Source: an uncultured Rhodospirillales bacterium (GTDB lineage: Bacteria > Pseudomonadota > Alphaproteobacteria > ATCC43930 > CGMCC-115725). From it: a DNA stretch of 33,501 bases. The DNA lies in contig CAIUCF010000320.1 of NCBI GenBank assembly GCA_903897565.1, forward strand, positions 1 to 33,501, in the 5' to 3' direction. The notes beneath the pieces were generated by a model, which saw nothing but the letters and a program-made list of their open reading frames with translations, searched no databases and had not been told where the DNA came from. Position 1 is the stretch's first letter. Every line of letters begins with the position of its first letter. Of the stretch, positions 5,522-23,533 are shown piece by piece. Both the position numbers and the translations under genes were made by a program.

Positions 5522-5815
5522 GACAGAGCCCTTGACGAGGCGGCAGGTCGGGTGGGACGCCGGCACGAGCCGACCCCTCGCCCGAGATCCGCGAGAGAAA
5601 AGCAACAGCCAGGGCTCCGCCCACAAACGAAACGATCCCCCGGCAACCCGAGGGTTTCATCATGTCACAACGGAAATGTCGAGGGGTCTCGGTTAAAAAT
5701 AGGACCATCCGCCGCATGCTCACGGCCACATTCCGGCGCGACACCGTTGACGCGGCACCGGCTTCGCCGGATCTCTACCCATCCCATTGCCCAGCAAGCC
5801 CGAAGGTCATCAGAA

Positions 5816-6604
5816 ATGCCACCGTCGAACTCGCCAAGGGAGGGCGGCCGTTGCGCCGTCTTCATCCCGGCGCGCCTCGCCTCCACCCGGCTCCCCGACA
5901 AACCCCTGGCGTTGATTCACGGACTCCCGATGATCATCCATGTCTGGCAGCGCGCCGTCGCCGCCGGGATCGGCCCGGTGATCGTCGCCGCCGCGGACCA
6001 AGCGATCGCGGATGCCGTCATCGCGGCCGGCGGCACCTGTGTGTTGACCGATCCGGACCTGCCATCGGGCTCGGATCGCGTCCATGCCGCGCTCGAGGCG
6101 ATTGATCCCGGAGGCGAGATAACCACGATCGTCAACGTCCAGGGTGACCTGCCGACGATCGATCCCACCCTGATCAGCCGCGTGCTCGACCCGCTGCTCG
6201 ACCCAGCGGTCGATATCGCCACCCTGGTCTGCCCGATTACCGAGCCGGACGAACGAACCCGGCCAAGCGTCGTCAAGGCGGCCGTGGCCTGGCAGCCCGG
6301 CAACATCATCGGCCGGGCGCTGTATTTCAGCCGCGCCACGATCCCCTGGGGCGAGGGCGAGTTGCTCCATCATATCGGCCTGTATGCTTATCGTCGCGCC
6401 GCGCTCGCCCGATTCGTCGGACTTCCCGCTGCCGCACTTGAACAACGCGAGAGTCTGGAGCAACTTCGCGCGCTTGAAGCAGGGATGCGGATCGATGTCG
6501 CCCGGGTGACGACGATCCCGCTCGGCGTCGATACGCCGGATGATCTGGAGCGGGCTCGGATCATGTTGGCTGGCACGAGAACGGGGAATAGACAGAATGA
6601 TTGA
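5816..6604 (+). CDS. kdsB: 3-deoxy-manno-octulosonate cytidylyltransferase (CMP-KDO synthetase)
   Basis: '[34 protein letters not shown]' and 'VNVQGDLP' are typical KdsB motifs. ATG at 5816. The 5' 990 nt of ORF 4826..6604 is antisense to cycM. Confidence 0.9.
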
Positions 6605-8076: not shown

Positions 8077-9009
8077 CTACTCCGACTCCAGCCAGTCGGT
8101 GATCAGACGCCAGGCAATCGAATCGCGCGGCGGAATGCAGAATTTGTCGTCGCCGGGATGAGATTTCAGGAAATCGCGCGAATACCAGTCGGCCGATTCC
8201 AGCTCGGCGGTATCCACCTTGATTTCGGTCGAGGTCGCCTTCGCGCGGAAGCCGAGCATGACGGAGGCTGGGAACGGCCAAGGCTGCGATGACTGATAGA
8301 TCACCTCGCCGACCTCGATTCCGCTCTCTTCCTTGACCTCGCGGGCGACGGCATGTTCAAGGCTTTCGCCGGGCTCGACGAAACCGGCAAGCGTCGAATG
8401 CATGCCCGGCGGCCACACCTTCTGGCGTCCCAGCAGACAGCGGTCGCCATCGGTCACGAGCATGATCACGGCGGGATCGGTGCGGGGGAAATGCTGAGCG
8501 CCGCAGGCCGGATTGGTGCAGAGCCTGACATGGCCGCCATCGGTCGATTTGGCCGGGGCGCCGCAGACGCCGCAGAAGCGATGTCGGCTGTGCCAGTTCG
8601 CCATCCCGCGCGCATAGGCGAGCAATCCCGCATCGGCGGCCGCGAGCCGCGAGCCGATCGCCCGTAACGGCTCGAGCGACAGGTCGTCGGCGATATCCGC
8701 TGGCACCGCGATGCCGCTGAGCGGCTCGGCGAGTCCCGAGAGGTCGACAGAGAAGGTCGCGGCACCCGCGGCGTCGAGCCCGAGGAACACCGTATCGGCG
8801 AAGGGATCGCCGAGAGCCGCGAACGCCTCGGCGCTCAGCAGCGCTGGACGATTGCCCTGCGGCCCGCGGACGAGAAGTTGCTGGTCGCGCCAGATCACGA
8901 GAAAGCGCGTGGCCTCTTCGCCCAGACGGCCATAGAGCCAGTCATGATCCTTGCGCCGATCATGGGCGCGATCCAGGTAACTCGACGCGTAAAAATTCTG
9001 CTGGCGCAT
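8077..9009 (-). CDS. nudC: NAD+ diphosphatase (NADH pyrophosphatase), Nudix family
   Basis: C4 zinc ribbon 'CGVCGAPAKSTDGGHVRLCTNPACG'. Nudix box 'GFVEPGESLEHAVAREVKEESGI'. NudC-specific 'SQPWPFPAS'. ATG at 9009 (MRQQNFY...). Confidence 0.9.
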   Translation of the reverse strand: MRQQNFYASSYLDRAHDRRKDHDWLYGRLGEEATRFLVIWRDQQLLVRGPQGNRPALLSAEAFAALGDPFADTVFLGLDAAGAATFSVDLSGLAEPLSGIAVPADIADDLSLEPLRAIGSRLAAADAGLLAYARGMANWHSRHRFCGVCGAPAKSTDGGHVRLCTNPACGAQHFPRTDPAVIMLVTDGDRCLLGRQKVWPPGMHSTLAGFVEPGESLEHAVAREVKEESGIEVGEVIYQSSQPWPFPASVMLGFRAKATSTEIKVDTAELESADWYSRDFLKSHPGDDKFCIPPRDSIAWRLITDWLESE

Positions 9010-9109
9010 TCTCTTCCCGATCCTTGTTGAGCGGTTCCCGGCGCGGAGAATACGACCCTTCGGCGCGGCGATACAGACAAGAGTGATCCTCTGACCTCTG
9101 ATCAGGTCG

Positions 9110-9505
9110 TTAGTCGCTCGCCTCGATCCGCGCCATATCGGCGTCACTGAGCCCGAAATGATGACCAACCTCGTGAATCAGGACGTGCCGGATCAGATCG
9201 GCCAGATCTTCGCCCGTTTCGCACCAGTAATCGAGTAACGGCCGACGATAGAGATAGATCGTGTCGATCGACGGCGGCCCGCCGGCGTCGCGATTCTTGA
9301 GCGTAACCCCGCGATAGAGCCCGAGCAGGTCGAACGGGCTCTCTAGGCCCATCTCGGCGCAGGTCTCGTCGTCCGGGAAATCCATGACCACAATCGGCAC
9401 GGCCGCGATATACCTGCGCAATTCGGACGGAATTGTCGCAAGCGCCGCCATGCCGAGCACTTCTATCATCTTGTCATCGGGCGCAAAAATCGGCTTCTGT
9501 TCCAT
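9110..9505 (-). CDS. Small zincin-like metallopeptidase family protein
   Basis: 'HEVGHHFG' HExxH motif near the C-terminus of a 131-aa acidic protein. ATG at 9505 (MEQKPIF...). Confidence 0.7.
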   Translation of the reverse strand: MEQKPIFAPDDKMIEVLGMAALATIPSELRRYIAAVPIVVMDFPDDETCAEMGLESPFDLLGLYRGVTLKNRDAGGPPSIDTIYLYRRPLLDYWCETGEDLADLIRHVLIHEVGHHFGLSDADMARIEASD

Positions 9506-9590
9506 GGCTTGGTGTCCCCTCGCAATTCGGGCGGTCCGAAACCCTGCCGATGGAGAAGGTTGTTTTAATTCCATTCAGCACAATTGTTAG

Positions 9591-9619
9591 TTATGAAATC
9601 CGAATAAGCGCATTATAAT
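9591..9619 (+). promoter_or_regulatory. Possible sigma70-type promoter for the histidine kinase gene
   Basis: A perfect TATAAT (9614-9619) lies 17 nt after TTATGA (9591-9596), which is a weak -35 with 3/6 matches, in an AT-rich divergent intergenic region. The -10 overlaps the ATG at 9618. If this promoter is used, translation would start at ATG 9690. Confidence 0.25.
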
Positions 9620-11909
9620 GTTTACCAGGGCGGACTTCCGAGCCTTTTGCTCTCCGGGTCGCTCAAAAATAGTTGCTTCGGACACGCCCATGTCGGTCAG
9701 GCCCAACGGCATCCCTCATCACCATGAGTCGCGGACGATCCTGCTCTACTGGATCGCCGTGGGGGTGCTGGTGGCCGTCGTGCTGGGTATCGGGGCGTCC
9801 CTCGTATCGCGCGAAGTCGAGCGGCGGCGCTGGATCGAGCACTCCTACGAGGTAATATTCGAACTGAACACGGTCCTCAGCGACGTGATCGAGGCCGAGT
9901 CCGGGCAACGTGGCCTCGTGAGCACCGGAGTCGAAGCCTACCGACAGCGCTATCACGGCGCCTGCGCCAAGCTGGCGACCGACCTCGACACCGTCTCGAC
10001 CCTCATTCGGGACAACACCGAACAGTCAAACAGGATCAAGGACCTTCGCGGTCTGATCTTGCTCAAGATCGCCGACATGAATCAGATCATCGCGCTCGGG
10101 GATGGCGGGGATTGGAACAAGCTGCGGGCCTTCGTGCGCCCCGGCACCGGCCTAACCTTGATGGACAAGATTCGCAACACGCTGAATCAGCTCAACGGCG
10201 AGGAACTCCGGCTGCTGCGGCAGCGAACCGATGCCGCGCTCGGCCTCAATCGCTGGATCCTGCCGGCAGGAGGGGGCGGAGTGGTCCTCGCGGGGTTCAT
10301 CCTGCTCCTCGGAATGAGCCTCAATCACAAGGAGAAGGCCAGGCGCGCGGCCGCGGAAGAGGCGTTGCGACGCAGCGAGGCCCGGTTTCGCGTTCTGGTC
10401 AATCGGGTTTACGATTACGCGATCTTCATGCTCGCCCCGGATGGGACGATCCTATCCTGGAATACCGGCGCCGAACGGATCAACGGCTACAGCGCCGAGG
10501 AAGCAGTCGGCAAGCATTTCTCGATTTTGTATTCGGCCGAGGATCTGGCCTTGGGCAGACCGGAACTCGAGCTGGGAAACGCGCTCAAGACCGGCCATTG
10601 CGAGGAAGAGGGCTGGCGAATCCGCAAAGACGGCTCCCGATTCTGGGCCAATGCCAGCGTCACGGCGATGCGTGACGATGAAGGAATGCTGCTGGGTTTC
10701 GCCAAGATCTCTCGCGATCTCACTGACCGCAAACGTATCGAGGACGCCCTCCAACACGCCAAAGAGCTGGCCGAAGCATCGACGAGGGCGAAGTCGACCT
10801 TCCTCGCGACGATGAGCCACGAGTTGCGGACCCCGATGACCGGGGTTCTCGGCATGATCGAGCTACTGCAGACCAATCCGCCGCCGGCGGAGACCCAGCT
10901 GTTTCTCGATACGCTGCGCAGTTCGGCGGTGTCGTTGATGACAGTCCTGGGCGACATCCTCGACCTGTCGAAGATCGAAGCCGATCGGATCATCCTGGAG
11001 ACCGTCGATTTCAACGTCTTCGATCTGGTCTCGACGATTCTGACGTTATTCATGCCGCAGGCGTCCTCGAAGGGCCTGACGCTCAAATTCAGCGCCACCT
11101 TCACACGGGAGTACAGTTACGTGCGCGGTGACCCAAACCGCCTGCGCCAGGTACTTTCGAATCTCATCAACAATGCGATCAAATTCACCCAGAACGGCTC
11201 GGTCGAACTGATTGCCGAGGCGCCGAGTGCCGAGGATTCGCTGTTCTGGCGCTTCGAAATCCGCGACACCGGGATCGGCATGACGCATGAAGAGCGCGAG
11301 CGGGTCTTCGACAGCTTCAGCCAAGCAGATGTTTCGACGGCCCGCCGCTTCGGCGGCACCGGCCTCGGCCTCACGATCAGCAAGCGGATCGTCGAGATCA
11401 TGGGTGGTGAGATCGGGGCCACCAGTACGGTCGGCATCGGCTCGAGCTTCTGGGCCCGGGTACCCCTGCAGTCCGGGACCCCGGAGGCCGTTTTTGCCAC
11501 GGAAACGCGCGAGCCGCTGGATTTGGCGCCGATGGCCAAATCCTTGCGAATCCTCGTTGCCGAAGACAATCCGGTAAATCAGCTGCTCTGCAGCTACATG
11601 CTCCAGCAGATGGGGCACGAGGTGACCAGCGTCGGCAACGGCCGAGAGGCTGTCGATGCCGTGATGGCCACGCCACTCGATGTCGTTCTCATGGATATGC
11701 AGATGCCGGAGATGGACGGACCCGAGGCGACCCGGCTAATCCGCTTGCTGCCGGAGCCACAGTCGAGGATTCCGATCATCGGCCTCACCGCGGACGTCAC
11801 GCTCGATAATCGCGAACGCTATCACGCGTCGGGGCTGGACGGCTTCATCACCAAGCCGATCGATCCCCGGCGCCTGCGAGCGGAACTGGAGCTTCTCGTT
11901 CAGGACTGA
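9618..11909 (+). CDS. Hybrid sensor histidine kinase (CHASE3 - TM - PAS - HisKA - HATPase - receiver)
   Basis: N-terminal TM segment, then a CHASE3-like segment 'WIEHSYEVIFELNTVLSDVIEAESGQRG'. A second TM, then PAS ('DGTILSWNTGAERINGYSAEEAVGKH'). H-box 'MSHELRTPM', N-box 'NLINNAIKFT', G-boxes 'DTGIGM' and 'GGTGLGL'. Receiver 'ILVAEDNPVNQ...VLMDMQMPEMDG...K'. The start may be ATG 9690 instead. Confidence 0.9.
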   Translation: MFTRADFRAFCSPGRSKIVASDTPMSVRPNGIPHHHESRTILLYWIAVGVLVAVVLGIGASLVSREVERRRWIEHSYEVIFELNTVLSDVIEAESGQRGLVSTGVEAYRQRYHGACAKLATDLDTVSTLIRDNTEQSNRIKDLRGLILLKIADMNQIIALGDGGDWNKLRAFVRPGTGLTLMDKIRNTLNQLNGEELRLLRQRTDAALGLNRWILPAGGGGVVLAGFILLLGMSLNHKEKARRAAAEEALRRSEARFRVLVNRVYDYAIFMLAPDGTILSWNTGAERINGYSAEEAVGKHFSILYSAEDLALGRPELELGNALKTGHCEEEGWRIRKDGSRFWANASVTAMRDDEGMLLGFAKISRDLTDRKRIEDALQHAKELAEASTRAKSTFLATMSHELRTPMTGVLGMIELLQTNPPPAETQLFLDTLRSSAVSLMTVLGDILDLSKIEADRIILETVDFNVFDLVSTILTLFMPQASSKGLTLKFSATFTREYSYVRGDPNRLRQVLSNLINNAIKFTQNGSVELIAEAPSAEDSLFWRFEIRDTGIGMTHEERERVFDSFSQADVSTARRFGGTGLGLTISKRIVEIMGGEIGATSTVGIGSSFWARVPLQSGTPEAVFATETREPLDLAPMAKSLRILVAEDNPVNQLLCSYMLQQMGHEVTSVGNGREAVDAVMATPLDVVLMDMQMPEMDGPEATRLIRLLPEPQSRIPIIGLTADVTLDNRERYHASGLDGFITKPIDPRRLRAELELLVQD

Positions 11910-11917
11910 TGAGATCG

Positions 11918-12142
11918 TCAGTCGCGATCCCAGCCGCGATGGCGATCGCCATCATGATCCCAATGTCCGCGGTAGCCGTCGTCATAGCCATAATAGGCCG
12001 GCCCGTGGCCATAATAGCCGGCGGGATAGACGACACAGCCGGAGAGGACGAGCCCGCACAAGGCCAGGGCGCCCAGCGTCGCCAGCGGCTTCAACCTCAC
12101 GATGGGCTTGCGCTTCCGGGTTTCCGCATCAAACACGGTCAT
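11918..12142 (-). CDS. Small Gly/Tyr/His/Asp-rich lipoprotein (74 aa precursor)
   Basis: GGGAG lies 8 nt upstream of the ATG at 12142. Signal plus lipobox 'LATLGALALCGLVLSGC'. Mature peptide 'VVYPAGYYGHGPAYYGYDDGYRGHWDHDGDRHRGWDRD'. Confidence 0.7.
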   Translation of the reverse strand: MTVFDAETRKRKPIVRLKPLATLGALALCGLVLSGCVVYPAGYYGHGPAYYGYDDGYRGHWDHDGDRHRGWDRD

Positions 12143-14062: not shown

Positions 14063-15103
14063 ATGACGGATACTGTCCCCCTGACGATCGCCTTCCGCGT
14101 CGACGGCAATCACGCCATGGGGCTCGGCCATCTGATGCGCTGCCGGGCGCTCGCCGAAGCCCTGATCGCGGCGGGTCATCGCTGCAGCTTTCTCGTGGCT
14201 GCGCCAGACCCCGAGGTAACCGCTCCACTCAAGGCGGCTGGCATCGCGATTCTGGCGATCGATCCGGCCCGGGACCGCGACGCCGCGGAAACCCTGACCC
14301 AATGCCGTGCGCTCGGCGCCGCGGCTCTGGTGATCGATGGCTACCATTTCGAGGACGGCTGGCGCCGCGCCGCGCGCGCCGTCGCGACGCCGATCGTGGC
14401 CTTTGCCGATGGCCCGCTACGTCCAGGCCATGCCGACCTGCTGATCGATGCCGCCAGCCCCGAGTCCAGCGATCCGTCTGAACTGTTCGGTCCCGACTAC
14501 GTGCTCCTGCGGCGCGAACTCGTCGAGGCTGCCCGTTTGCCGCTGTTACCGATTGAGCAGCGTCCGACGATCCTGATTACCTTTGGCGGCTCCGATCCGC
14601 TGGCGCTGACCCATCGGGTCACGATAAGCCTGTTCGGCCTCCTGCCGGACACCCAGCTCGCCGTCGTGATCGGGCCAGCGACCGAAGGCGGCGACGCCGT
14701 AGCCCGCAGCCTTCGCGCGCTCGGCCGGCGCGTTACGGTACATCGTGCACCGCCTGCGATGGGAGAGCTGATGCGCCATGCCGGGCTCGCCGTCTCGGCG
14801 GCCGGCGGGACAGTCGGGGAATTGGCAGCCCTCGGCGTTCCGGCGGTGTTGGCCGTCGTCGCCGATAACCAGCTTGCTGGTGCGCAGGCTTGCGTGGCGG
14901 CCGGCTGGTGCTCGGGCGTTGACGCACGCACCGATCCGGCCGCCTCGAACCGGCTCGCCCTCGCTGCGGTTCATCTTTGGCTTCATCCAGAAAAGCGCGC
15001 GCTCTGGGCGGCGCGAGCTCGGTCGGCCGTCGATCCAGGCGGCGCGGATCGGGTCGCCGCGGCGCTACTCGCGGCGATCGCCCGCCGCAAAGCAGGAAAT
15101 TAA
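14063..15103 (+). CDS. pseG: PseG-like UDP-2,4-diacetamido-2,4,6-trideoxy-beta-L-altropyranose hydrolase (GT28-C fold)
   Basis: AGGAGG (14055-14060) lies before the ATG. N-terminus 'IAFRVDGNHAMGLGHLMRCRALAEAL'. Central 'ILITFGGSDPLALT'. C-terminal 'SAAGGTVGELAALGVPAVLAVVADNQ'. These three blocks are the pattern I associate with the PseG family (TIGR03590). Confidence 0.75.
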   Translation: MTDTVPLTIAFRVDGNHAMGLGHLMRCRALAEALIAAGHRCSFLVAAPDPEVTAPLKAAGIAILAIDPARDRDAAETLTQCRALGAAALVIDGYHFEDGWRRAARAVATPIVAFADGPLRPGHADLLIDAASPESSDPSELFGPDYVLLRRELVEAARLPLLPIEQRPTILITFGGSDPLALTHRVTISLFGLLPDTQLAVVIGPATEGGDAVARSLRALGRRVTVHRAPPAMGELMRHAGLAVSAAGGTVGELAALGVPAVLAVVADNQLAGAQACVAAGWCSGVDARTDPAASNRLALAAVHLWLHPEKRALWAARARSAVDPGGADRVAAALLAAIARRKAGN

Positions 15104-15199
15104 CCGAATAAAAACCGTGGCCGTCGGTAGAATGCGGTCCCGAGACGACAGAACTGCTCGGGCAGCGGCAATACCGGCCCAGCCGGTCGAGGAGGCAAG

Positions 15200-16288
15200 G
15201 TGGCGACTATCCAGATCCAGGGCGTTCGTGTCGCCGGCATCGCTGCCGCGGTGCCCGAAGGCACCCGCGGTGTCGCGGATGAAGCCGCAATCTTCGGTGT
15301 CGACGAAATGGAGAAGACCGCCAAGGTGATCGGCGTCCGCTCCCGCCATATCGCGCCGCCGCAGCTCTGTACCTCCGACCTCTGTCACGCCGCCGCCGTT
15401 CGCCTGCTCGACGACCTCGGCTGGGCTCGTGACAGCGTCGACGGCCTCATCTTCGTCAGCCAGTCGCCCGATTACGAGCTGCCGGCCACCGCCTGCACCC
15501 TGCAGGCGCGGCTCGGCCTGCCCGACCGTTGCGCCGCCTTCGACGTCAATCTCGGCTGTTCCGGCTTCGTCTACGGGTTATGGCTCGGCAGCCAGATCGT
15601 CGGTGGCGGCGGCATCAGGCGCTTGCTGCTGCTCGCCGGCGACGTCAGCACGCGCCGCCTCGCTCCCCACGACAAATCGGTGAAGCCCTTGTTCGGAGAC
15701 GCCGGCACGGCGACAGCGATCGAGTTCTCGCCCGGTGCTGCACCCATGGCATTCGAACTCGGCACCGACGGCGCCGGCTTCGCCAGCATCATCATCCCGG
15801 CGAGCGGCTTCCGTCAGCCGCGCACCGATGAAACCAAGGCTCTCTTCGCCGGCGCGGACGGCATCGAGCGCAGTGCCGAGAACATCTATATCAACGGTGC
15901 CGAGGTCTTTAATTTCACGATCAAGCGCATTCCGCCGCTGGTCGAAACCCTGATGGCGAGCGCCGGCAAGACCCGGGAGCAATACGATCACTTCGTCTTT
16001 CATCAGGCCAATGCCTTCATGCTGCAGCATTTGGCCAAGCGCCTCAAAATTCCGACAGAGAAGTTCGTCCTGGCGATGGAGACGGTCGGCAATACCAGCA
16101 GCGCCTCGATCCCGCTCGCCATCACCATGGCGCTGCGCGAATCCCTCGCCGAGCAACCCCGCGAGATGCTCCTCGCCGGTTTCGGAGTCGGCCTCAGCTG
16201 GGCTGCGGCATCGCTGACCCTCGACAGGCCGGTCGTTCCGGCGCTTGTTATCGTTCCCGACGATACTCCCGCGATGGCCGCAGGCTAG
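15200..16288 (+). CDS. 3-oxoacyl-ACP synthase III (FabH-like KAS III)
   Basis: GGAGG (15191-15195) lies before the GTG at 15200. The Cys-His-Asn triad contexts 'NLGCSGFVYGL', 'FVFHQANAFM' and 'VGNTSSASIP' are all present. Confidence 0.85.
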   Translation: MATIQIQGVRVAGIAAAVPEGTRGVADEAAIFGVDEMEKTAKVIGVRSRHIAPPQLCTSDLCHAAAVRLLDDLGWARDSVDGLIFVSQSPDYELPATACTLQARLGLPDRCAAFDVNLGCSGFVYGLWLGSQIVGGGGIRRLLLLAGDVSTRRLAPHDKSVKPLFGDAGTATAIEFSPGAAPMAFELGTDGAGFASIIIPASGFRQPRTDETKALFAGADGIERSAENIYINGAEVFNFTIKRIPPLVETLMASAGKTREQYDHFVFHQANAFMLQHLAKRLKIPTEKFVLAMETVGNTSSASIPLAITMALRESLAEQPREMLLAGFGVGLSWAAASLTLDRPVVPALVIVPDDTPAMAAG

Positions 16289-16290
16289 AG

Positions 16291-17046
16291 ATGTTCAACC
16301 CCCTCGATTTCACCGGCCGACGCTTCCTGGTCACCGGCGCTTCCTCCGGCATCGGCGAGGCGACCGCGATCATGCTCGGTCGCCTCGGCGGCCAGGTCGT
16401 ACTGGCGGGACGCGATCTCGATCGCCTGAACCAGGCGGTGGCCGCGGTCCCCGGGTCCGGCCACAGCGTTGCGTCGTTCGATCTCGGCGATACTGATGCC
16501 ATTCCCGGCTGGGTCGCCAAACTTGCCGCTGACGGGCCGTTCCATGGCCTCGCCCATTGCGCCGGCCTGCAGACCCTGCGCCCGCTGAAAAGCGCCAGTG
16601 CCGCCTTCGTCGAGGAAATGCTGCGCGTCAATGTCGGCGCCGCGCTGGCGATCGGCCGCGCGATTCGCCAGCGCAATGTCGCTGCCAAGCCCGCCAGCCT
16701 GGTGCTGATCTCCTCCACGGCCGGCATGACCGGTCAGCCCGGCAACGTCGTCTACAATGCGACCAAGGGCGCGATCATTGCCGCGGTCAAGGGCATGGCC
16801 CTCGAACTGGTCCGCGACGACATCCGCGTCAATGCCGTGGCCCCTGCCCTGGTGCGGACACCGATGTCCGAGAAATCGATGAAGATCTGGTCGCCTGAGC
16901 AATTGCAGGCGGTCCTCGCGATCCACCCGATGGGCTTCGGCACCGCCGACGACGTCGCCAACGCGATTGTCTTTCTCCTGAGCGACATGGCGCGCTGGAT
17001 CACCGGAACAACGGTCGTGGTCGATGGCGGATACACGGCCCAATAA
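16291..17046 (+). CDS. SDR family oxidoreductase (FabG-like 3-ketoacyl reductase)
   Basis: The start is 2 nt after the KAS III stop. 'VTGASSGIGEA' (TGxxxGxG) and 'SSTAG...YNATKGA' (Ser-Tyr-Lys). Confidence 0.85.
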   Translation: MFNPLDFTGRRFLVTGASSGIGEATAIMLGRLGGQVVLAGRDLDRLNQAVAAVPGSGHSVASFDLGDTDAIPGWVAKLAADGPFHGLAHCAGLQTLRPLKSASAAFVEEMLRVNVGAALAIGRAIRQRNVAAKPASLVLISSTAGMTGQPGNVVYNATKGAIIAAVKGMALELVRDDIRVNAVAPALVRTPMSEKSMKIWSPEQLQAVLAIHPMGFGTADDVANAIVFLLSDMARWITGTTVVVDGGYTAQ

Positions 17047-18175
17047 CGCCTCCACGCTGGCGGCCAACCGCCTGGGTCCGGGTGACTACACTGATCCCGC
17101 GATCCTTGCGGCCGAGCGCGCGCACATCTTTCGCAGACATTGGCATTTCGTCGGCCTCGATCGCGACCTCGCCGAGCCCGAGTCCTGGTTTCTGACCAAG
17201 GTCGCCGGAACCGAGATCATCATCCAGCGCGTTGCCGGGGATGGGTTGCGCGCGTTCGTCAATGTCTGCCCGCACCGCTACAATGCCCTCGTCAACGCCC
17301 CGAACGGCCGCGGCCGGCTGCGTTGCGGCTACCATCTCTGGTCGTTCGACGACAACGGCTTGGCTGCTCAGGTCCCCCTGCGCGCCGGCGTCGCGTTGGA
17401 GGCGTGTCAGACCGCCGCGCTGTCGCTGCGCCGTTGGTCGGTCGAGCGCTGTGGCGCGCTCATCTTCGTCGCCGAGCAGCCGGAGCGGCCGCTCGCAGCC
17501 TTCCTCGGACCGCTCGGCGCTGAGCTGGCGACGCTCTCGCGGGGACTCGGCACCGAGGTCCTGAGATTCTCCCAGGACATCGCCGCGAACTGGAAGGTGA
17601 TCCTGCAGAACACGGTCGAGTTCGATCATGCCTTCGGCGTTCACCCGGAAACCTTCGCTGCGATGGTCGAGCGACCGCTCCATCTTGTCCCTCACGATGC
17701 GGTGGCGCCCCACATCGCCTATCACACGCGGATGAAACCGCGCGATGGGCTGAAGCCGATCGAGCGCCGGATCGAGGACATCTTCGCCCGCTCGGTGATC
17801 CCGCAAGCCGAGGGCTACACCCACGCGACATTGTTCCCTTCCGCGACGATCGGCACGACGGCAAACCGGATCTTCGCCCTCATTCGCTACCAACCACTGG
17901 CGCCGGACCGGACGCACGCCGAGTACCGGCTGTTCATCTCGCAGATCACCGGTCTGACGGCCGTCGAGCAGGCCATTCTCGATCGCGTGGTTCCGGTCGA
18001 TGTCGCCTTCACCCAGCGCCTGCTCGAGGAAGATCGCCAGATCTGCGAGTCGGTGCAACGCGGTCTTAGCAATGCGCCCGCCGATCTTGCTGGCATCCTG
18101 ATGCCGGGAGAGAGTCTGGTCGGGCGATTTCAGCAGTATTGGCTCGACGCCATGCGCGCAGGCGCATTAACTTAA
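17024..18175 (+). CDS. Rieske non-haem iron oxygenase, alpha-subunit type (intact)
   Basis: Rieske ligands 'CPHRYN...CGYHLWSF'. Mononuclear iron region 'NWKVILQNTVEFDHAFGVH' and a distal 'EEDRQICESVQRG'. It overlaps the SDR stop by 23 nt. Confidence 0.85.
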   Translation: MADTRPNNASTLAANRLGPGDYTDPAILAAERAHIFRRHWHFVGLDRDLAEPESWFLTKVAGTEIIIQRVAGDGLRAFVNVCPHRYNALVNAPNGRGRLRCGYHLWSFDDNGLAAQVPLRAGVALEACQTAALSLRRWSVERCGALIFVAEQPERPLAAFLGPLGAELATLSRGLGTEVLRFSQDIAANWKVILQNTVEFDHAFGVHPETFAAMVERPLHLVPHDAVAPHIAYHTRMKPRDGLKPIERRIEDIFARSVIPQAEGYTHATLFPSATIGTTANRIFALIRYQPLAPDRTHAEYRLFISQITGLTAVEQAILDRVVPVDVAFTQRLLEEDRQICESVQRGLSNAPADLAGILMPGESLVGRFQQYWLDAMRAGALT

Positions 18176-18197
18176 CCATGCGCTGCGACGCATTAAC
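18150..18197 (+). repeat. Tandem 22-nt imperfect direct repeat (26-nt period), each unit a short hairpin, spanning the oxygenase stop codon
   Basis: Unit A, 18150-18171, is CCATGCGC-GCAGG-CGCATTAAC. Unit B, 18176-18197, is CCATGCGC-TGCGA-CGCATTAAC. They share 18/22 identity. In unit A, ATGCGC and GCGCAT form a perfect 6-bp stem with a 4-nt loop. Confidence 0.6.
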
Positions 18198-18235
18198 CTT
18201 GAATTCAGAGGCCGCAGGCCATTCTCCCCCTTCAG

Positions 18236-18248
18236 ACAATTAAATTGT
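18236..18248. promoter_or_regulatory. Perfect 6-1-6 palindrome ACAATT-A-AATTGT immediately upstream of the ACP ribosome-binding site (candidate operator)
   Basis: Read directly from the sequence. It is an AT-rich island in about 65% GC DNA. GAGGA (18250-18254) and the ATG at 18259 follow. Confidence 0.3.
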
Positions 18249-18258
18249 TGAGGACGTC

Positions 18259-18492
18259 ATGACACCCACCGAATTCTACGCCGCGCTCGACGAAATGCTC
18301 GAGCTCGACCCCGGCACCATCACCGGAAACGAACGGCTCGAGGATGTCGAGGCGTGGGATTCGCTGGCCGTGATCAGCTTCATCGCACTCGTCGACGAGA
18401 AGTTCGACATCCTGGTCGAGACAGAGAAGCTCGCGGCCGCCGAATCGGTCGGCGATCTCTACGCACTGGCGACCCGCCAGAAGGCCGCCTGA
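18259..18492 (+). CDS. Acyl carrier protein (dedicated, 77 aa)
   Basis: An acidic small protein with the phosphopantetheine attachment context 'EDVEAWDSLAVISFIALVDEKF' (DSL Ser). RBS GAGGA. Confidence 0.8.
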   Translation: MTPTEFYAALDEMLELDPGTITGNERLEDVEAWDSLAVISFIALVDEKFDILVETEKLAAAESVGDLYALATRQKAA

Positions 18493-18511
18493 ACCGTCGC
18501 AGCGGCCACCC

Positions 18512-19327
18512 GTGAGCACCGTGAACCCGGCACGGGTCAAATATCGCCAGATTGAACTCGCCGGCCAGCGCGTCGGCCTCCTCACCGCAGGTCCGCCCGA
18601 GGCCGTGCCGATGCTGTTGCTGCATGGCTTCTCGGGCGACGCCCTGACCTGGCAGTTCAATGTCGGTGCACTCGCCCGCCATCACCGCGTCACCGCGATC
18701 GACCTTCCCGGCCATGGCCTGACCGAAGCGACCGAGCAGATCGGCTATTGGCGTGGCATGGTGGATTGGGTCGCGGAGATCGTGGCGGCCCTCGAACTCC
18801 CGCCAGCGCACCTCGCCGGGCATTCCCTCGGCGCCCGCATCCTGCTCGGCGGCCTGGAGGAGGAAAAGTTGGCCGGGCTCAGCCTCAGCCTGATCTCCTG
18901 CGCCGGCATCTCGCCGAGCTATGATTACGAATTCCTCGATCGGCTCTCGCGAATCGAGACGATGGCCGACGCCGTCGCCTGCGTCCTGCGCCTGCTCGGC
19001 GATGCCCCCGACCAGCCGGAACGTCTCGCCAAGGGCCTGTTCCAGAAACTGACGACCCCCGCCGCCAAGGCAGCCTTGCGTGCCTATCTCGCCAGCAATT
19101 TTGCCGAAGGCCGGCTTCTGCCGGCCGCGCCGGTGCGCTGGGACGCGCTCGCCTGCCCGTTGCAGATCATCTGGGGAGCCGATGACGGCATCGTACAACT
19201 TCCGCCACCCGATTGGCTCCCGGCCGGAATCGCCGTGCATCTGCTGGATCGCGTCGGACATCTTCCGCACATGACGGCTGCCGATCGCGTCAATGCGCTG
19301 TTGGTCGCCCATGCCGGAGCGACGTGA
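18512..19327 (+). CDS. Alpha/beta-fold hydrolase (possible acyltransferase or thioesterase)
   Basis: 'MLLLHGFSGDALTW', 'AIDLPGHG', the nucleophile elbow 'GHSLGA', and a C-terminal 'DRVGHLPHM' (catalytic His region). Confidence 0.8.
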   Translation: MSTVNPARVKYRQIELAGQRVGLLTAGPPEAVPMLLLHGFSGDALTWQFNVGALARHHRVTAIDLPGHGLTEATEQIGYWRGMVDWVAEIVAALELPPAHLAGHSLGARILLGGLEEEKLAGLSLSLISCAGISPSYDYEFLDRLSRIETMADAVACVLRLLGDAPDQPERLAKGLFQKLTTPAAKAALRAYLASNFAEGRLLPAAPVRWDALACPLQIIWGADDGIVQLPPPDWLPAGIAVHLLDRVGHLPHMTAADRVNALLVAHAGAT

Positions 19328-19905
19328 TGAGCGCGACCAATCTGCGCAGCGGCGTCCTCAGCTACCCCGCGCTCGGCGAAGAGCACGCCGCATTGGTCCT
19401 CGGCTGGCGAACGCGCCCGGATATCACCCAATACCTGCTGACGGATATCGTCCCGGATCTCGACGCCCAGAAGCGCTGGCTGGCGGCTTGCGTCGAGAGA
19501 CCGGATTTCCTCCATCGCCTGATCGCGGTCGACGACGTTCCGGTCGGCTATTGCTCGATCACGACCACGGATGCGAGCGCCGGGATAGGCGCGATCGGGG
19601 TCTATCTTGCCGAAAAGACGTCGCGCAGCGGCATCGCCAGCTTCAATTTCATCCATATCCTCAATCACGCGCTACTGACGCTCGGATTGTTCAAGATCGT
19701 CAACCACATCATGAGCGCCAATGAACGCGTGATCCGCAGCCAGGTCATGAACGGCTACCGTCCGGTCGGGATATTGCGCCAGCACGCTGTCAAACATGGC
19801 GAGCGCCACGATCTCCACGTCTTCGAGCAACTGCGCGAGGATTGGCTGAAGCATCGCGAGAAGTTCCGAGACTATCGCGATCTCGACGGCATCGAACGGC
19901 GCTAG
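19327..19905 (+). CDS. pseH: PseH-like GNAT N-acyltransferase (UDP-4-amino-4,6-dideoxy-AltNAc N-acetyltransferase family)
   Basis: The ATG overlaps the hydrolase stop (GTGATGA). 192 aa. Layout: 'LGEEHAALVLGWRTRPDITQYL', 'KRWLAAC', 'HRLIAVDDVPVGYCSIT..IGAIGVYL', 'IVNHIMSANERVIRSQVMNGYRPVGILRQH...HDLHVFEQLREDW'. This matches the PseH family pattern (TIGR03585) as I remember it. Confidence 0.65.
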   Translation: MSATNLRSGVLSYPALGEEHAALVLGWRTRPDITQYLLTDIVPDLDAQKRWLAACVERPDFLHRLIAVDDVPVGYCSITTTDASAGIGAIGVYLAEKTSRSGIASFNFIHILNHALLTLGLFKIVNHIMSANERVIRSQVMNGYRPVGILRQHAVKHGERHDLHVFEQLREDWLKHREKFRDYRDLDGIERR

Positions 19906-19908
19906 ACC

Positions 19909-20859
19909 ATGGCCGACCTCACGGAAACGCCAGCGCTCGGGCATGAGGCTTACTGGAAGGCCGAGAGTTTCGCCGCGGAGATGGGTGCCGTGTTCGCGCG
20001 GTCATGGCTTTTCGCCGGCCTCACGACCGCGTTTCCACCGGGGACGCATCCGCTGGACCTCGCCGGCATGGCGCTCACGATCGATGCCACGCCTACCGGT
20101 TTCTCGGCACGCTTTGGCGAGGCCGTGTCGGATGTCGATCGATGCGGCCAGCTGCTGTTCGTGCGTCCGGTCTCCGGGGGCCCCGGCCTTGCAGAGTTCC
20201 TCGCACCTTACGCGACGCTCCTGGAGACGATTTCGCAGGCCCTCGTCGAGGTCGACCATGTCGCGCGCATGGTGGCGCCCGTGAACTGGAAGGCCCTGGT
20301 CGAGAACACGCTCGACGATTGCCACGCGGCCACGGTTCACACCAAGAGCCTGCAGCCGGCGATGGATCCGGCCTGGCTGGCGCGCTACCGGCCCGACCGC
20401 CACGGCGCCCACAGCATGATGGGCAATGATCTCGGCGCGGCGGACGCGACGTTCTGGTCGCGTCTCGCCGAACGGCTGCCGCTCGCCCGCCACCATCACG
20501 ACGCCGTCTACAAGCACCTGTTCATCTTTCCGAATCTCTACGTCGCCACGTTTTTCGGGGCGATGGTGATCCTCCACCGGATCGATCCGATCACAGCGGA
20601 ATCGGCGGCGCTCGAATTGCTCACCTGCCTGCCCGTCACCCGCGCCATGAGCAATCGCGAGCGGGCGCTGCACGCGGCGGTGCTGCGCGATCTCGTCGCC
20701 AAGGCTGAGATCGTGGTCGAAGAGGACATGGCGGTCTGCCGCCTCGCCCAGCGCGGCCACCATTTCGCCGTCCACCCCGGCATCCTGGGCACGCGGGAGT
20801 GCCGAGTCGGCGATTTTCAGCGGACCCTGGTCCAGGCCATCGCCGAAGCCGTGGGATAG
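19909..20859 (+). CDS. Rieske-oxygenase alpha-subunit homologue retaining the catalytic (mononuclear Fe) domain but lacking the Rieske cluster ligands
   Basis: The N-terminal helix 'YWKAESFAAEMGAVFARSWLFAG' is present. No CxH...CxxH occurs anywhere, and the segment between 'ALTIDATPTG' and 'CGQLLFVRP' is too short. The catalytic motif 'NWKALVENTLDDCHAATVH' and distal 'EEDMAVCRLAQRG' are present. Confidence 0.75.
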   Translation: MADLTETPALGHEAYWKAESFAAEMGAVFARSWLFAGLTTAFPPGTHPLDLAGMALTIDATPTGFSARFGEAVSDVDRCGQLLFVRPVSGGPGLAEFLAPYATLLETISQALVEVDHVARMVAPVNWKALVENTLDDCHAATVHTKSLQPAMDPAWLARYRPDRHGAHSMMGNDLGAADATFWSRLAERLPLARHHHDAVYKHLFIFPNLYVATFFGAMVILHRIDPITAESAALELLTCLPVTRAMSNRERALHAAVLRDLVAKAEIVVEEDMAVCRLAQRGHHFAVHPGILGTRECRVGDFQRTLVQAIAEAVG

Positions 20860-20866
20860 CGCCGCG

Positions 20867-21502
20867 CTATTCGGGCGACGGCGCGATGAAATCGAACCGC
20901 GCCACCTCAATTCCCCGATTACCCGCGGGGAGCGTGATCTCGACGCTGCTCGCGCGATGATCGCCGTGAATGCAGAGATTGCGGAAGCGGATCTCCGCGA
21001 CGCCCTCCAGCTCCGGCCCGTCACCGGTTCCGAGCAGCCGGTGTCCGAGAGCCGGCGTTACGGCGAGAGCCTCGATGCGGCTCCCCAAGGCTTCGATCAG
21101 TGGCTCCGTACCCGGATCCACCCTCACGAATACCAGGCGGCCGAGGATCTCGACCTCGACCCGACGCAGCGCCAACCGCTTTCGGGCCGTGGCATCGAGC
21201 CCGAAGAGCAGGTCATTGTCGGGAATACCGATTGGTATGCCATGGGCATTGTAGACCCAGCCGTGATAAGGGCAACGCAACGGACCGACGCCGCAGCCGG
21301 CCTCCCGCATCTGGGTACCGCGATGCGAGCACACGTTCCAGTATCCGCCCAGGGCGCCGCGAAAATTCTGCACCGTGATCGAGAGCTCCGGCAGGTCGAC
21401 GGTCACATGCTGGCCGTCGACCGCGAGCCGGTCGCGAATGGTCAGGCAGAACCAACCGGTTCGCCATGATACTGCTGTCAACGGATCACCAATCCTCGCC
21501 AT
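20867..21502 (-). CDS. Stand-alone Rieske [2Fe-2S] domain protein (oxygenase alpha subunit lacking the catalytic domain)
   Basis: 'CSHRGTQM...CPYHGWVY' Rieske ligands, then 'GRLVFVRV'. Only about 90 further residues follow, with no NWK..D..H....H motif. 211 aa. Convergent with the previous gene, with a 7-nt gap. Confidence 0.75.
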   Translation of the reverse strand: MARIGDPLTAVSWRTGWFCLTIRDRLAVDGQHVTVDLPELSITVQNFRGALGGYWNVCSHRGTQMREAGCGVGPLRCPYHGWVYNAHGIPIGIPDNDLLFGLDATARKRLALRRVEVEILGRLVFVRVDPGTEPLIEALGSRIEALAVTPALGHRLLGTGDGPELEGVAEIRFRNLCIHGDHRASSVEITLPAGNRGIEVARFDFIAPSPE

Positions 21503-21565
21503 GATTTATCCGAAAATTAACTCTCGCGCGGGACACTCGACGTCGTTAGATCCTGACTTGCGATC

Positions 21566-23533
21566 TTGACCGCGTTTCTCGTCCCAAAGCCAGGTATCAT
21601 CAAGACTGTGACGACAAGCAACAGCGCCGAAACCTCCGCCACGTTCCTCGCAGCGCGAATTCTGGCCGCGCTCAATGAGGGCGCGCTGGAACAAGCCATC
21701 GGCGATCTTCAGAAGCTGCAGCAGGACGGCAGTGCCCCGGCCCTGACTCTGCATCTGGTCGGGCTCGCGTCGTTGCGCGTCAATGAGGTCGGCAAGGCCG
21801 TCGCAGCGTTCGAGGAGGCCCATCGCCTCGATCCCCAGCTCAACGAACCCGTCGAGGTTCTCGCGATCCTCCACGCCAAGCTCGGCCGTCTAACGGACGG
21901 GCTGTACTACGGCAAGCTCTCGATCGCGGCGCAGAATCGCTTCCCCGTCGCCGGCATGATCCCGGATTGGCTCGGCAAGTTCGAGGAATCCTTCTTCAAC
22001 ATGCAGGATCGCCCGCTGCTGGCCCAGGCCGAGCGGGCAATGGCGTCGGGCCATTATCTGGAAGCGATCCGGTGTTTCCGTCAGGCGGCCGAGATCGACG
22101 GCAATGCCGCGGAGACGTGGCGCGGCCTCGCGACAGCGCATCGCCTCGCCGGGCAACCCTTCGAGAGCGTCGTCGCCCTGCGCAAGATCGAGGCGATTGC
22201 CGCGCCGGAGGCCCGCGACTATGCCGCCCTCGGTGAGGCGCTGCAGATGCTGGGCCGCTGGGACGAAGCGATCGAGTGCCATGAGCACGCCGTAACGCTG
22301 GCGCCCCGGGATGAGCAATTCGGCTGGGCGGCACTGCGCTGCCGGCTGCGGCAACCGGCGACCGAGGAGGCGATCGCCGCGGCCACCCAAATCTGGGCCG
22401 CCGCCAATCGTCGAGAGCCGATCTTCGACGCGCCACCCTGGCCGGACGTCACTGCGCTGGAGCGCCGCCCGGTCCGCCTCGGTATCTATACCGGGAGTTG
22501 GCTCGACCCTGTTGCGCTCGCCCTGGTCGTGCCTCTGCTGCTTGCGCTGCCCCCGGACCGGATCGAGCTTTGTGTCTATTCCGACGGACCGGCAGACACC
22601 GAACTCGCCCGCCGGCTGCGCGGCCACGCCAAGCGATGGGAAAGCCTGACCGATCTCGACGACGAAACCGCCGCCTTCACCCTGGGCAACGAGGAACTCG
22701 ATGTCCTGATCGACCTCGATGGCCCCTTGCGGCGGACATGGCGGCCGCTGCTGTTCCAGTACCGCCCGCATCCGATCGCGTTGAGCCTACTTGACCTGCC
22801 CGTGACGGCCATGGCTGCCGGCTATTCCCACGCCCTGACCGATGCTCCGATCGGCTTGGCGGACCGCCAGCAGGTCGGCATTCCCGGGATCGCGACCAAT
22901 CTTCCAAGCGATCTTTCCCTCCTGATCCAGCCCGTACCTGATCGGGCCCTGACCGAGGGCGGTATCGTTTTCGGCACGCTCGTGCCCTATGGCCGGATTT
23001 CGATGACCGAGACGGTGCTCTGGGCCGATCTGCTGGCACAGGTGCCGGGCTCGACGCTCGCGCTTGAGCCCGATCGTCTCGGAGGCGAGCCGGGGCTCGC
23101 CGAAATTCTCGATCGCTTCAACCGCATCGGACTGGCCGACCGGGTCCGGGTCGAGCCGCGCGACCAGGTCGCGACCGCCTATCTCGAGCGCGTCGATCTC
23201 CTGCTCGACGCCCCCGGATCGCCGCACTACGAAGAGGCCGTGATGGCGATCGCCGCCGGTATGCCGGTCATCACGGTTCCCGGAACGACGCCGGCAACCC
23301 GGGCACTGGGCAATTGGCTCGGGTCGACGCTCGGCCTCGGTGAACTCATCGCCCATGATGGCGAAAGCTATGTCGCGCTGGCGCGCAACGCCGTCTCGAG
23401 CTCGGCAGGGCCTGCCCTGCGGCAACGGCTTCGCGATGCTGTGGACCGCGAGCGCAAGACCGGCGCGCCGACGCGTGCACGACTGTTCGATGCCGCCCTT
23501 CGCGAACTCCTTGCCCGGGTGAGGGCAGAATAA
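21566..23533 (+). CDS. TPR-repeat protein fused to a GT41-like (SPINDLY/O-GlcNAc-transferase family) glycosyltransferase domain
   Basis: The N-terminal ~270 aa are TPR-like helical repeats (e.g. 'GKAVAAFEEAHRLDPQLNEP', 'YLEAIRCFRQAAEIDGNAAETW', 'WDEAIECHEHAVTLAPRD'). The C-terminus follows the COG3914 pattern: 'VRLGIYTGSW', 'LDVLIDLDGPLRRTWRPLLFQYRPHPIAL', 'IVFGTL', 'VDLLLDAPGSPHYEEAVMAIAAGMPVITVPGTTPATRALGNWL..LGLGELIA'. The start is TTG 21566 or GTG 21608. Confidence 0.75.
   Translation: MTAFLVPKPGIIKTVTTSNSAETSATFLAARILAALNEGALEQAIGDLQKLQQDGSAPALTLHLVGLASLRVNEVGKAVAAFEEAHRLDPQLNEPVEVLAILHAKLGRLTDGLYYGKLSIAAQNRFPVAGMIPDWLGKFEESFFNMQDRPLLAQAERAMASGHYLEAIRCFRQAAEIDGNAAETWRGLATAHRLAGQPFESVVALRKIEAIAAPEARDYAALGEALQMLGRWDEAIECHEHAVTLAPRDEQFGWAALRCRLRQPATEEAIAAATQIWAAANRREPIFDAPPWPDVTALERRPVRLGIYTGSWLDPVALALVVPLLLALPPDRIELCVYSDGPADTELARRLRGHAKRWESLTDLDDETAAFTLGNEELDVLIDLDGPLRRTWRPLLFQYRPHPIALSLLDLPVTAMAAGYSHALTDAPIGLADRQQVGIPGIATNLPSDLSLLIQPVPDRALTEGGIVFGTLVPYGRISMTETVLWADLLAQVPGSTLALEPDRLGGEPGLAEILDRFNRIGLADRVRVEPRDQVATAYLERVDLLLDAPGSPHYEEAVMAIAAGMPVITVPGTTPATRALGNWLGSTLGLGELIAHDGESYVALARNAVSSSAGPALRQRLRDAVDRERKTGAPTRARLFDAALRELLARVRAE

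Follow-up and report, generated by a model that had tools for sequence, protein, structure and literature searches.

A bacterial gene pair that probably divides one Rieske oxygenase between a catalytic-iron chain and a Rieske-cluster chain

Two convergent genes at positions 19,909 to 21,502 of contig CAIUCF010000320.1 (GenBank assembly GCA_903897565.1), a 33,501-nucleotide (nt) stretch of DNA from an uncultured Rhodospirillales bacterium, encode proteins that each resemble part of a Rieske non-heme-iron oxygenase alpha subunit and that each carry only one of its two metal sites. One protein, of 316 amino acids (aa), has the mononuclear-iron site and no Rieske cluster, and the other, of 211 aa, has the Rieske cluster ligands and no mononuclear-iron site. 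The whole stretch is called the window below and all positions are numbered within it; L numbers denote related contigs and reference-genome loci, and P numbers denote homologous proteins. Both open reading frames (ORFs) lie where a preliminary description of this DNA had placed them, and our reading of the sequence confirmed that they converge with stop codons exactly 7 nt apart. The pair and its parts are as follows.

19909..20859, + strand: catalytic-only (i.e., cluster-less) Rieske-oxygenase alpha subunit, 316 aa, PF00848 alone
19936..20040, + strand: N-terminal helix region kept, residues 10-44 of the 316-aa protein (GbcA profile positions 33-67)
20008..20166, + strand: vestigial Rieske-domain stub, residues 34-86, six predicted beta strands without the cluster-binding loops
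20302..20340, + strand: mononuclear-iron motif E132-N-T-L-D136-D-C-H139-A-A-T-V-H144, with H139 and H144 as predicted iron ligands and D136 as predicted bridging carboxylate
20722..20727, + strand: E272-D273, predicted to supply the carboxylate ligand of the catalytic iron; unchanged throughout the family and among full-length relatives
20860..20866: 7-nt spacer between the convergent stops, read from the sequence as TAG (20857-20859), CGCCGCG and CTA (20867-20869)
20867..21502, - strand: Rieske-only, alpha-subunit-derived protein, 211 aa, PF00355 alone
21263..21331, - strand: Rieske [2Fe-2S] ligand block C58-S-H60...C77-P-Y-H80
20870..21070, - strand: tail, residues 145-211, probable catalytic-domain beta-sheet vestige without iron ligands

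A promoter and terminator scan around the gene pair returned nothing above shuffled expectation.

The sole Pfam match of the 316-aa protein is PF00848 (residues 120-312, E 1.3e-18), and the scan returned no Rieske-domain match. The motifs quoted in the preliminary description, NWKALVENTLDDCHAATVH and EEDMAV, are both present and correspond to the invariant residues E132, D136, H139, H144 and D273; across 15 members of the catalytic-only family, D137 and E272 are invariant as well. Alignment and hhalign comparisons likewise bore out the claim that this protein keeps the N-terminal helix and the iron site and has lost the cluster ligands and their loops. The catalytic-only family, represented by a profile made without the fusion protein P0015 (whose Rieske domain confounds the comparison), aligned over its whole length with full-length relatives (E 1.2e-47), and residues 8-67, which comprise the N-terminal helix and the first Rieske strands, aligned with them on their own at E 2.6e-11. 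The helix region is present even in the shortest catalytic-only relatives. Compared with the intact paralogue encoded at 17024..18175, to which it is 27% identical over the shared parts, the 316-aa protein has a gap opposite about residues 78-133 of the paralogue, which include the CPH...CGYH ligand loops, and the family alignment restarts after this gap at V-D-R-C-G-x-L-x-F-V.

The AlphaFold2 (AF2) model of the 316-aa protein has a predicted local distance difference test score (pLDDT) of 93.7 and a predicted template-modelling score (pTM) of 0.92. Its best fold matches in the PDB are the alpha3-type oxygenases Stc2 and CntA, with template-modelling (TM) scores of 0.73-0.76, and the catalytic-domain fold comes with the conserved His, His and Asp ligands and a bridging carboxylate. 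DSSP assigned strands to residues 34-38, 45-51, 54-61, 64-69, 72-79 and 82-86 of the model (pLDDT ~97). Because six confident strands are predicted within residues 34-86, the remnant of the Rieske domain appears to be a folded stub. Stub residues 38-75 compared alone with full-length profiles gave no significant match (E 0.04), and the putative Rieske-derived origin of this segment rests on the longer N-terminal alignment together with the predicted strands.

The 211-aa protein has PF00355 as its sole Pfam match (residues 17-96, E 4e-10). Its CSHRG...CPYHGW ligands are intact and the [DE]xxHxxxxH iron motif is not present, as previously described, and C58, H60, C77 and H80 are invariant across 19 members of the Rieske-only family. 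The reported absence of the N-terminal helix also held, with the protein beginning where the helix region ends (WRTGWFCL aligned to FRRHWHFVGL). All PDB sequence matches were to oxygenase alpha subunits (residues 15-142, down to E 3.7e-12). A fold search with the AF2 model (overall pLDDT 91.2) agreed, in that the top 50 matches were all alpha subunits (TM score up to 0.75) and included no Rieske ferredoxins. The chain thus has an alpha-type Rieske fold by Pfam, by PDB sequence and by fold.

What follows the Rieske domain in the 211-aa protein also points to an alpha subunit. The Rieske-only family aligned with full-length relatives by hhalign in one continuous stretch (E 1.5e-44) that places its tail on the FPN...P strands of the catalytic domain, with a gap of ~75 residues where the NWK..EN..D..H....H iron motif would fall. 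The tail is ordered in the AF2 model (helix 135-148 and four strands within 169-206, pLDDT 88-94). Tested alone, it matched at E 4.6e-4 with a probability of 33%, and the sequence evidence is therefore suggestive that the tail is a catalytic-domain vestige. Against the intact paralogue (32% identity over the shared parts) alignment is lost shortly past the linker. A clearer case than the window tail is the 273-aa Rieske-only partner at L048, which matches the full-length hidden Markov model (HMM) in two blocks (positions 18-185 and 251-310) and has a degenerate PWSVLVRSRVQAGQG between them, at the expected place of the His ligands.

One product of the pair thus has the Rieske site alone and the other the iron site alone. 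Neither chain is a single-chain alpha subunit with both metal sites on one polypeptide; both sites are found only in the pair taken together or in the paralogue at 17024..18175. As judged from their sequences, both chains derive from full-length alpha subunits of the same ~360-aa oxygenase clade and have lost complementary metal sites; missing from the 211-aa chain are the iron-binding helices and the whole C-terminal half of its former catalytic domain. The preliminary description had called the two proteins "reciprocally degenerate." This term is apt for the complementary loss of sites, but the lost halves are not plainly absent, as folded vestiges of them remain in each chain. Because each protein has the shared linker (VExxGxLxFV...LxexLg) and a vestige of the other half, the pair must descend from two complete gene copies. 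Simple fission or inversion of one ancestral gene was considered and rejected, given that the linker is present in both proteins and the vestiges are mutual.

The pairing of the two genes is conserved. A reference-genome scan yielded 40 loci, mostly from Azospirillum, Nitrospirillum and Niveispirillum (Azospirillaceae) and including one Aliidongia metagenome-assembled genome (MAG) and one Rhodospirillales MAG; several lie on plasmids, and 39 carry a catalytic-only gene. In an ORF and HMM census of these loci, Rieske-only and catalytic-only genes were adjacent in 38 of the 39, the remaining locus (L038) ending at a contig end. Conservation of the pair in related genomes, which the preliminary description had named as a check on its reading, is thereby established. 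The Rieske-only gene lies directly upstream on the same strand in 36 loci, where the junctions are mostly ATGA stop/start overlaps, and the genes converge in the other two. In the reverse direction, the Rieske-only proteins P0025 and P0037 adjoin catalytic-only genes. The closest relatives of the window, L046 (80% identity), L006 (71%), and L057/58 and L001/2 (58%), share its synteny and its convergent arrangement, and the 7-nt intergenic gap recurs in L006 and L046.

Two natural proteins join the halves on one chain. P0015 and P0050 (457 aa each, 71% identical to one another) consist of a Rieske domain joined to the N-terminus of a complete catalytic-only chain, and at L054, where the order is short-chain dehydrogenase/reductase (SDR), fusion and GNAT, a separate Rieske gene is absent. 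A rough neighbor-joining tree (Kimura-corrected distances, 232 columns, 100 bootstrap replicates) places the fusions within the split clade (86% bootstrap), and they therefore appear to be secondary re-fusions. Furthermore, 15 reference loci whose flanks extend 9 kb or more in each direction carry the pair and no full-length oxygenase, which suggests that the catalytic-only chain does not depend on a neighboring full-length enzyme for a cluster.

Several loci vary this arrangement. In Azospirillum sp. TSO35-2 an IS605 OrfB/TnpB-type gene splits the pair (L003:6697-7902, on the same contig as L008) and breaks the usual ATGA coupling, and at L016 a gap of ~1.3 kb (5131 to 6449) lies in the same place between the pair genes. 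At L014, L015 and L017 (Azospirillum strains) the pair is carried on plasmids of 283-317 kb, and the module is therefore part of the accessory genome. Niveispirillum-type pairs with 161- and 159-aa Rieske-only and 292- and 295-aa catalytic-only proteins occur in MAGs labeled "Rhizobium sp. Q54" (L035) and "Hydrogenophaga intermedia" (L036), that is, in a Rhizobium and a betaproteobacterial MAG, which reflects either horizontal transfer or mis-binning. Finally, a metagenomic locus (L055:6001-9773) contains four co-directional overlapping genes, encoding in order a Rieske-only protein (255 aa), two catalytic-only proteins (324 and 311 aa) and a full-length oxygenase (369 aa). The iron motif is present and the cluster ligands are missing in each of the two catalytic-only proteins, and one Rieske chain may serve two catalytic chains at this locus.

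Both genes are under purifying selection. We calculated ratios of nonsynonymous to synonymous substitution (dN/dS) by the Nei-Gojobori method for the window genes against three orthologues. The 316-aa gene as a whole gave 0.16-0.37 and the 211-aa gene 0.20-0.27, and the functional domains gave 0.10-0.29, compared with 0.04-0.20 for neighboring genes. Constraint is relaxed in the vestiges, where residues 45-75 of the 316-aa protein gave 0.26-1.1 and the tail of the 211-aa protein 0.33-0.61. Catalytic-only proteins retain their architecture (292-343 aa) down to 37% identity and Rieske-only proteins theirs (195-255 aa, with shorter forms in some genera) down to ~55% identity over the aligned part, and the codon-position GC of both ORFs is typical of coding sequence. 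The gene pair is real and conserved, and it is almost certainly functional.

Together, these data make it likely that the 316-aa and 211-aa proteins are the two halves of one Rieske non-heme-iron oxygenase. A heteromeric oxygenase with its halves on separate chains was among the possibilities raised in the preliminary description, and it is the one favored by the adjacency of the genes, their ATGA overlaps, the fusions, the invariant ligands and the purifying selection. In alpha3 Rieske oxygenases, electrons cross from the cluster of one subunit to the mononuclear iron of its neighbor. The distance from cluster to iron is ~12 Å across subunits, as opposed to ~44 Å within a subunit, and a carboxylate forms the bridge (PMC7948474, PMC12445004). 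The bridging residue of CntA is E205, located three positions ahead of His208, and CntA is inactive when E205 is mutated (PMC7948474). D136 of the 316-aa protein lies three residues before H139 and is the positional counterpart of E205.

For such a two-chain enzyme we infer a physical complex, an electron path, a stoichiometry and a substrate. An unlinked reductase, possibly with a ferredoxin, would reduce the Rieske cluster of the 211-aa chain, which would dock on the catalytic domain of the 316-aa chain as the Rieske domain of a neighboring subunit does in alpha3 oxygenases. The electron would then pass via D136 to an iron bound by H139, H144 and D273, where O2 would be activated.

Several observations weigh against a dedicated two-chain oxygenase. 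The annotated ORFs of the window and of the examined loci include no reductase or ferredoxin gene; redox partners of biosynthetic Rieske oxygenases are often encoded away from the oxygenase genes (PMC12445004). A C3 ring of catalytic-only chains would offer no evident docking place for the partner. The genes of the window clade are convergent and not co-transcribed. The tail of the Rieske-only chain is dispensable in some lineages, and the gene content of L055, where a single Rieske-only gene accompanies two catalytic-only genes and a full-length oxygenase gene, fits a shared donor as well as a fixed 1:1 complex.

Part of this evidence bears on a second possibility raised in the preliminary description, that the 211-aa protein is a diffusible, ferredoxin-like shuttle serving several oxygenases, including both of those in the island, rather than a dedicated subunit. 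The gene content of L055 makes a shared donor possible, and in the window clade the Rieske-only gene is convergent to the catalytic gene and transcribed apart from it. Loss of the tail, which leaves a domain of ~130 aa in some lineages, and the lack of a ferredoxin gene among the annotated ORFs of the island also fit a shuttle. Rieske-type ferredoxins of the BphF/CarAc type are small, soluble electron donors to oxygenases with a Rieske [2Fe-2S] cluster as sole cofactor. Unlike these stand-alone proteins of ~100-120 aa without alpha-type extensions, the 211-aa protein is an alpha-subunit fragment by sequence and fold that aligns through the alpha-type linker and bears a catalytic vestige, although homologues of 126-163 aa in other genera are near ferredoxin size. 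Moreover, two diverged natural proteins fuse the Rieske domain to the catalytic-only chain, the two genes are translationally coupled in most genomes, full-length enzymes have a cluster of their own, and the 15 loci with the pair have no full-length oxygenase nearby to be served. We therefore regard a general shuttle as unlikely, with L055 keeping the idea of a shared donor alive.

A third possibility is that the catalytic-only protein forms mixed trimers with the full-length paralogue and uses its cluster, the 211-aa protein being unrelated or redundant. The operon-like block of the window does include a full-length paralogue of the same clade, as does the neighborhood of the pair at 17 of the 39 reference loci, the N-terminal helix and folded stub could preserve trimer contacts, and alpha3-alpha'3 assemblies of paralogues are known, e.g., NdmA/NdmB (PMC12445004). 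However, the 15 fully flanked loci without a full-length oxygenase always retain the Rieske-only partner, the fusions and ATGA coupling tie the catalytic-only chain to the Rieske-only chain and not to the full-length enzyme, and the 316-aa protein and the paralogue are only 27% identical. These data make mixed trimers very unlikely.

That one or both genes are decaying, functionless remnants of full-length oxygenases, as the preliminary description had also allowed, is scarcely credible: half of the canonical enzyme is missing from each gene and the vestigial segments evolve faster than the rest, but the conserved pairing, the fusions, the purifying selection, the stable lengths of the truncated architectures, the invariant ligands at both retained sites, the confident AF2 models and the coding-type codon-position GC all argue against decay, and neither full-length single-gene orthologues nor frameshift scars were seen in relatives.

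Split pairs of this kind are not confined to one lineage. An exhaustive profile search of 1.84 billion representative proteins recovered only ~10 clusters (at 50% identity) of the core family and the fusion, along with further cluster-less proteins of like architecture (P0063, P0070, P0096, P0147, P0150, P0155, P0159, P0178 and P0181). These other cluster-less proteins are scattered in the neighbor-joining tree, with P0063 and P0096 grouping with the intact P0107 (86%), which suggests that cluster loss was repeated within the clade. At least two further lineages within this oxygenase clade have similar split pairs, in one case (L048) in a module of acyl carrier protein (ACP), SDR, PglD-type acyltransferase, pair, GT2 and FabH, and in the other (L050) in a module of pair, GNAT, FabH and ACP. 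The vestiges are trimmed to different degrees. Rieske-only partners range from 273 aa through 255 and 211 aa down to ~130-160 aa, with the tail absent in those of Nitrospirillum and Niveispirillum (126-163 aa), and the stub strands are wholly lost in the 291-aa Niveispirillum-type catalytic chains.

Other relatives depart from the pair architecture. In the metagenomic protein P0059 (344 aa), which likewise groups with an intact enzyme, P0065, in the tree (87%), the Rieske ligands are replaced by a zinc-ribbon- or rubredoxin-like CPGCH...CPRCG (CxxC-x12-CxxC) and the iron motif is intact; this protein may bear a different metal site instead of the [2Fe-2S] cluster. At L050:7230-9933 a full-length oxygenase gene is apparently interrupted by a 479-aa ORF without a Pfam match, possibly a mobile-element insertion; to either side of it lie a 222-aa ORF with the Rieske domain and part of the catalytic domain, and a 176-aa catalytic fragment. 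The catalytic-only P0147 (331 aa; L052:6001-6996 and L053:277-1272) has no Rieske-only partner within 6 kb and adjoins HicA/NikA-like genes in a planctomycete-like context (PSCyt/PSD1/DUF1501). The clade of P0147, P0155, P0178 and P0181 may receive electrons by another route.

The pair sits in a putative sugar-modification island (14063-23533) that also contains the following genes.

14063..15103, + strand: PseG-type UDP-sugar hydrolase of the pseudaminic-acid pathway, at the island start (TIGR03590)
15200-16288, + strand: FabH-like ketoacyl-ACP synthase III (KAS III), Pfam match
16291-17046, + strand: SDR, Pfam match
17024..18175, + strand: intact full-length Rieske oxygenase paralogue, 383 aa (PF00355 + PF00848)
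18259-18492, + strand: ACP, 77 aa (PF00550, E 9.7e-5)
18512-19327, + strand: alpha/beta hydrolase, Pfam match
19327..19905, + strand: PseH-like GNAT N-acyltransferase (PF13302, TIGR03585 PseH)
21566..23533, + strand: tetratricopeptide repeat (TPR) plus GT41-like glycosyltransferase of FlmG-like architecture, divergent from the Rieske-only gene (TPR repeats + PF13844)

The pair thus lies between the GNAT gene and the TPR-GT41 gene. GNAT is a constant neighbor: in Azospirillum-type loci the next gene downstream of the catalytic gene encodes a 47%-identity orthologue, and the orthologue also follows the catalytic-only gene in Nitrospirillum and the fusion at L054. The FabH, SDR, ACP and hydrolase set is common to L001, L046 and L057, and the TPR plus GT41 gene adjoins the pair in the same three loci. 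FlmG-type flagellin glycosyltransferases have reportedly been described in earlier work. The ACP gene is 97% identical to that of L046 (dN/dS 0.04), and an orthologous 77-aa ACP gene without a recorded Pfam family is present in the related contigs inspected. Outside the island, G+C content falls to 0.59-0.61 at 9001-12000, compared with 0.63-0.68 elsewhere in the window, and the gene for a CHASE3-PAS hybrid histidine kinase (9618-11909) begins within this dip.

This gene content would be consistent with a module that makes a short acyl-ACP, from which the acyl group would be moved to an amino sugar, probably of the pseudaminic-acid type, with the oxygenases of the module oxidizing the acyl or the sugar moiety. 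From gene context alone, we suggest with low confidence that the pair acts on an intermediate of a nonulosonic-acid-type glycan, either an acyl or an N-acyl-amino-sugar compound, and that this glycan may be destined for flagellin. This step is the weakest part of the account. PseG scores 159.5 bits against TIGR03590, above the cutoff of 153.55. The PseH-like GNAT scores 56.4 bits against TIGR03585, below the cutoff of 93.1, and the annotated ORFs of the 33.5-kb window include no PseB, PseC, PseF, PseI or flagellin genes; either the genes of the core nonulosonic-acid pathway lie elsewhere or the sugar is a different one. We also found no report in the literature that links a Rieske protein to pseudaminic acid, flagellin or Azospirillum glycosylation.

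A bolder version of the two-chain reading, which we offer tentatively and think has less than an even chance of being right, is that duplication of a homotrimer subunit, followed by division of its metal sites, is a recurrent evolutionary route (L048, L050 and L055) that yields a quaternary architecture unlike that of any Rieske oxygenase structure solved so far, and an undescribed N-acyl oxidation on a pseudaminic-acid-type sugar. In that event the enzyme may be, for example, a (Fe-chain)3(Rieske-chain)3 or a 1:2 assembly, the dead halves may serve as scaffold that is later trimmed, and the sugar may decorate flagellin or another surface glycan.

Rieske oxygenases split between two genes have precedents, and the novelty implied by the preliminary description was accordingly too high. 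In Micromonas and other Mamiellophyceae, chlorophyllide a oxygenase (CAO) is encoded by two genes (MpCAO1 and MpCAO2) and carries its iron motif and its Rieske cluster on separate products (bioRxiv 10.1101/2025.02.10.637544, PMC9615114), and both products are required for activity (bioRxiv 10.1101/2025.02.10.637544, citing Kunugi 2013). CAO and the present pair are alike in having one gene per metal site and in the rationale that electrons are transferred between subunits anyway. CAO differs in being eukaryotic, plastid-targeted, devoted to chlorophyll b synthesis and placed on an unrelated branch of the superfamily, whereas the pair described here comes from bacteria, belongs to a sugar/acyl-modification cluster, is usually translationally coupled, recurs in several lineages and is re-fused in some of them in a non-canonical order (i.e., with the Rieske domain before the N-terminal helix). 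The glycan/acyl context, the non-photosynthetic Azospirillaceae and the CntA and Stc2 structures give no hint of orthology to CAO, a judgment made without comparison to a CAO sequence.

The closest bacterial parallel is the N7-demethylase NdmCDE of Pseudomonas putida CBB5, in which NdmC has the iron site without a Rieske cluster, the FMN/NADH/plant-type ferredoxin reductase NdmD carries the Rieske domain as a fusion, and the GST-like protein NdmE is also needed (PMC4408171). The 316-aa protein resembles NdmC as a catalytic subunit without a cluster. Unlike NdmD, the 211-aa protein is stand-alone and alpha-derived with PF00355 alone, and is not fused to a reductase; no reductase gene is among the annotated ORFs of the window, L001-L004 and L026, and no GST-family match was found among the Pfam-scanned ORFs of the window. 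CntA and Stc2 (PDB 6y8j/6zgp and 3vca), the best structural matches of both models, have the same catalytic fold and His-His-carboxylate site, and their bridging carboxylate precedes the first His by 3 residues, as in the present pair, but they carry both sites on one chain in a homotrimer and are only 12-16% identical to the pair. Their quaternary-amine substrates are not implied for it. A 2025 review of Rieske quaternary structures lists only alpha3, alpha3-beta3, alpha3-alpha'3 and alpha3-alpha3 (PMC12445004). We found no description of this bacterial split family in the literature, where NdmCDE was the sole other bacterial split case found. The pair is thus a bacterial, glycan-associated addition to the split Rieske oxygenases already known.

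If the 316-aa and 211-aa proteins are indeed the two halves of one oxygenase, they would provide a compact bacterial model in which the electron-donating and catalytic halves lie on separate chains, such that inter-subunit electron transfer, redox tuning and assembly could be adjusted one chain at a time. The adjacent full-length paralogue, the re-fusions and the lineages with increasingly trimmed dead halves would serve as natural controls. The pair would also be a clean case of reciprocal degeneration (i.e., subfunctionalization) of duplicated homo-oligomer subunits, apparently repeated several times in one clade. In annotation, a "catalytic-domain-only" ORF and a short "Rieske" ORF of this kind are best treated as one unit and not as fragments. 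Azospirillaceae and their relatives are plant-associated, and their surface and flagellar glycans matter in colonization. The finding would point to an uncharacterized oxidative tailoring of acylated amino-sugar and nonulosonic-acid glycans in these bacteria.

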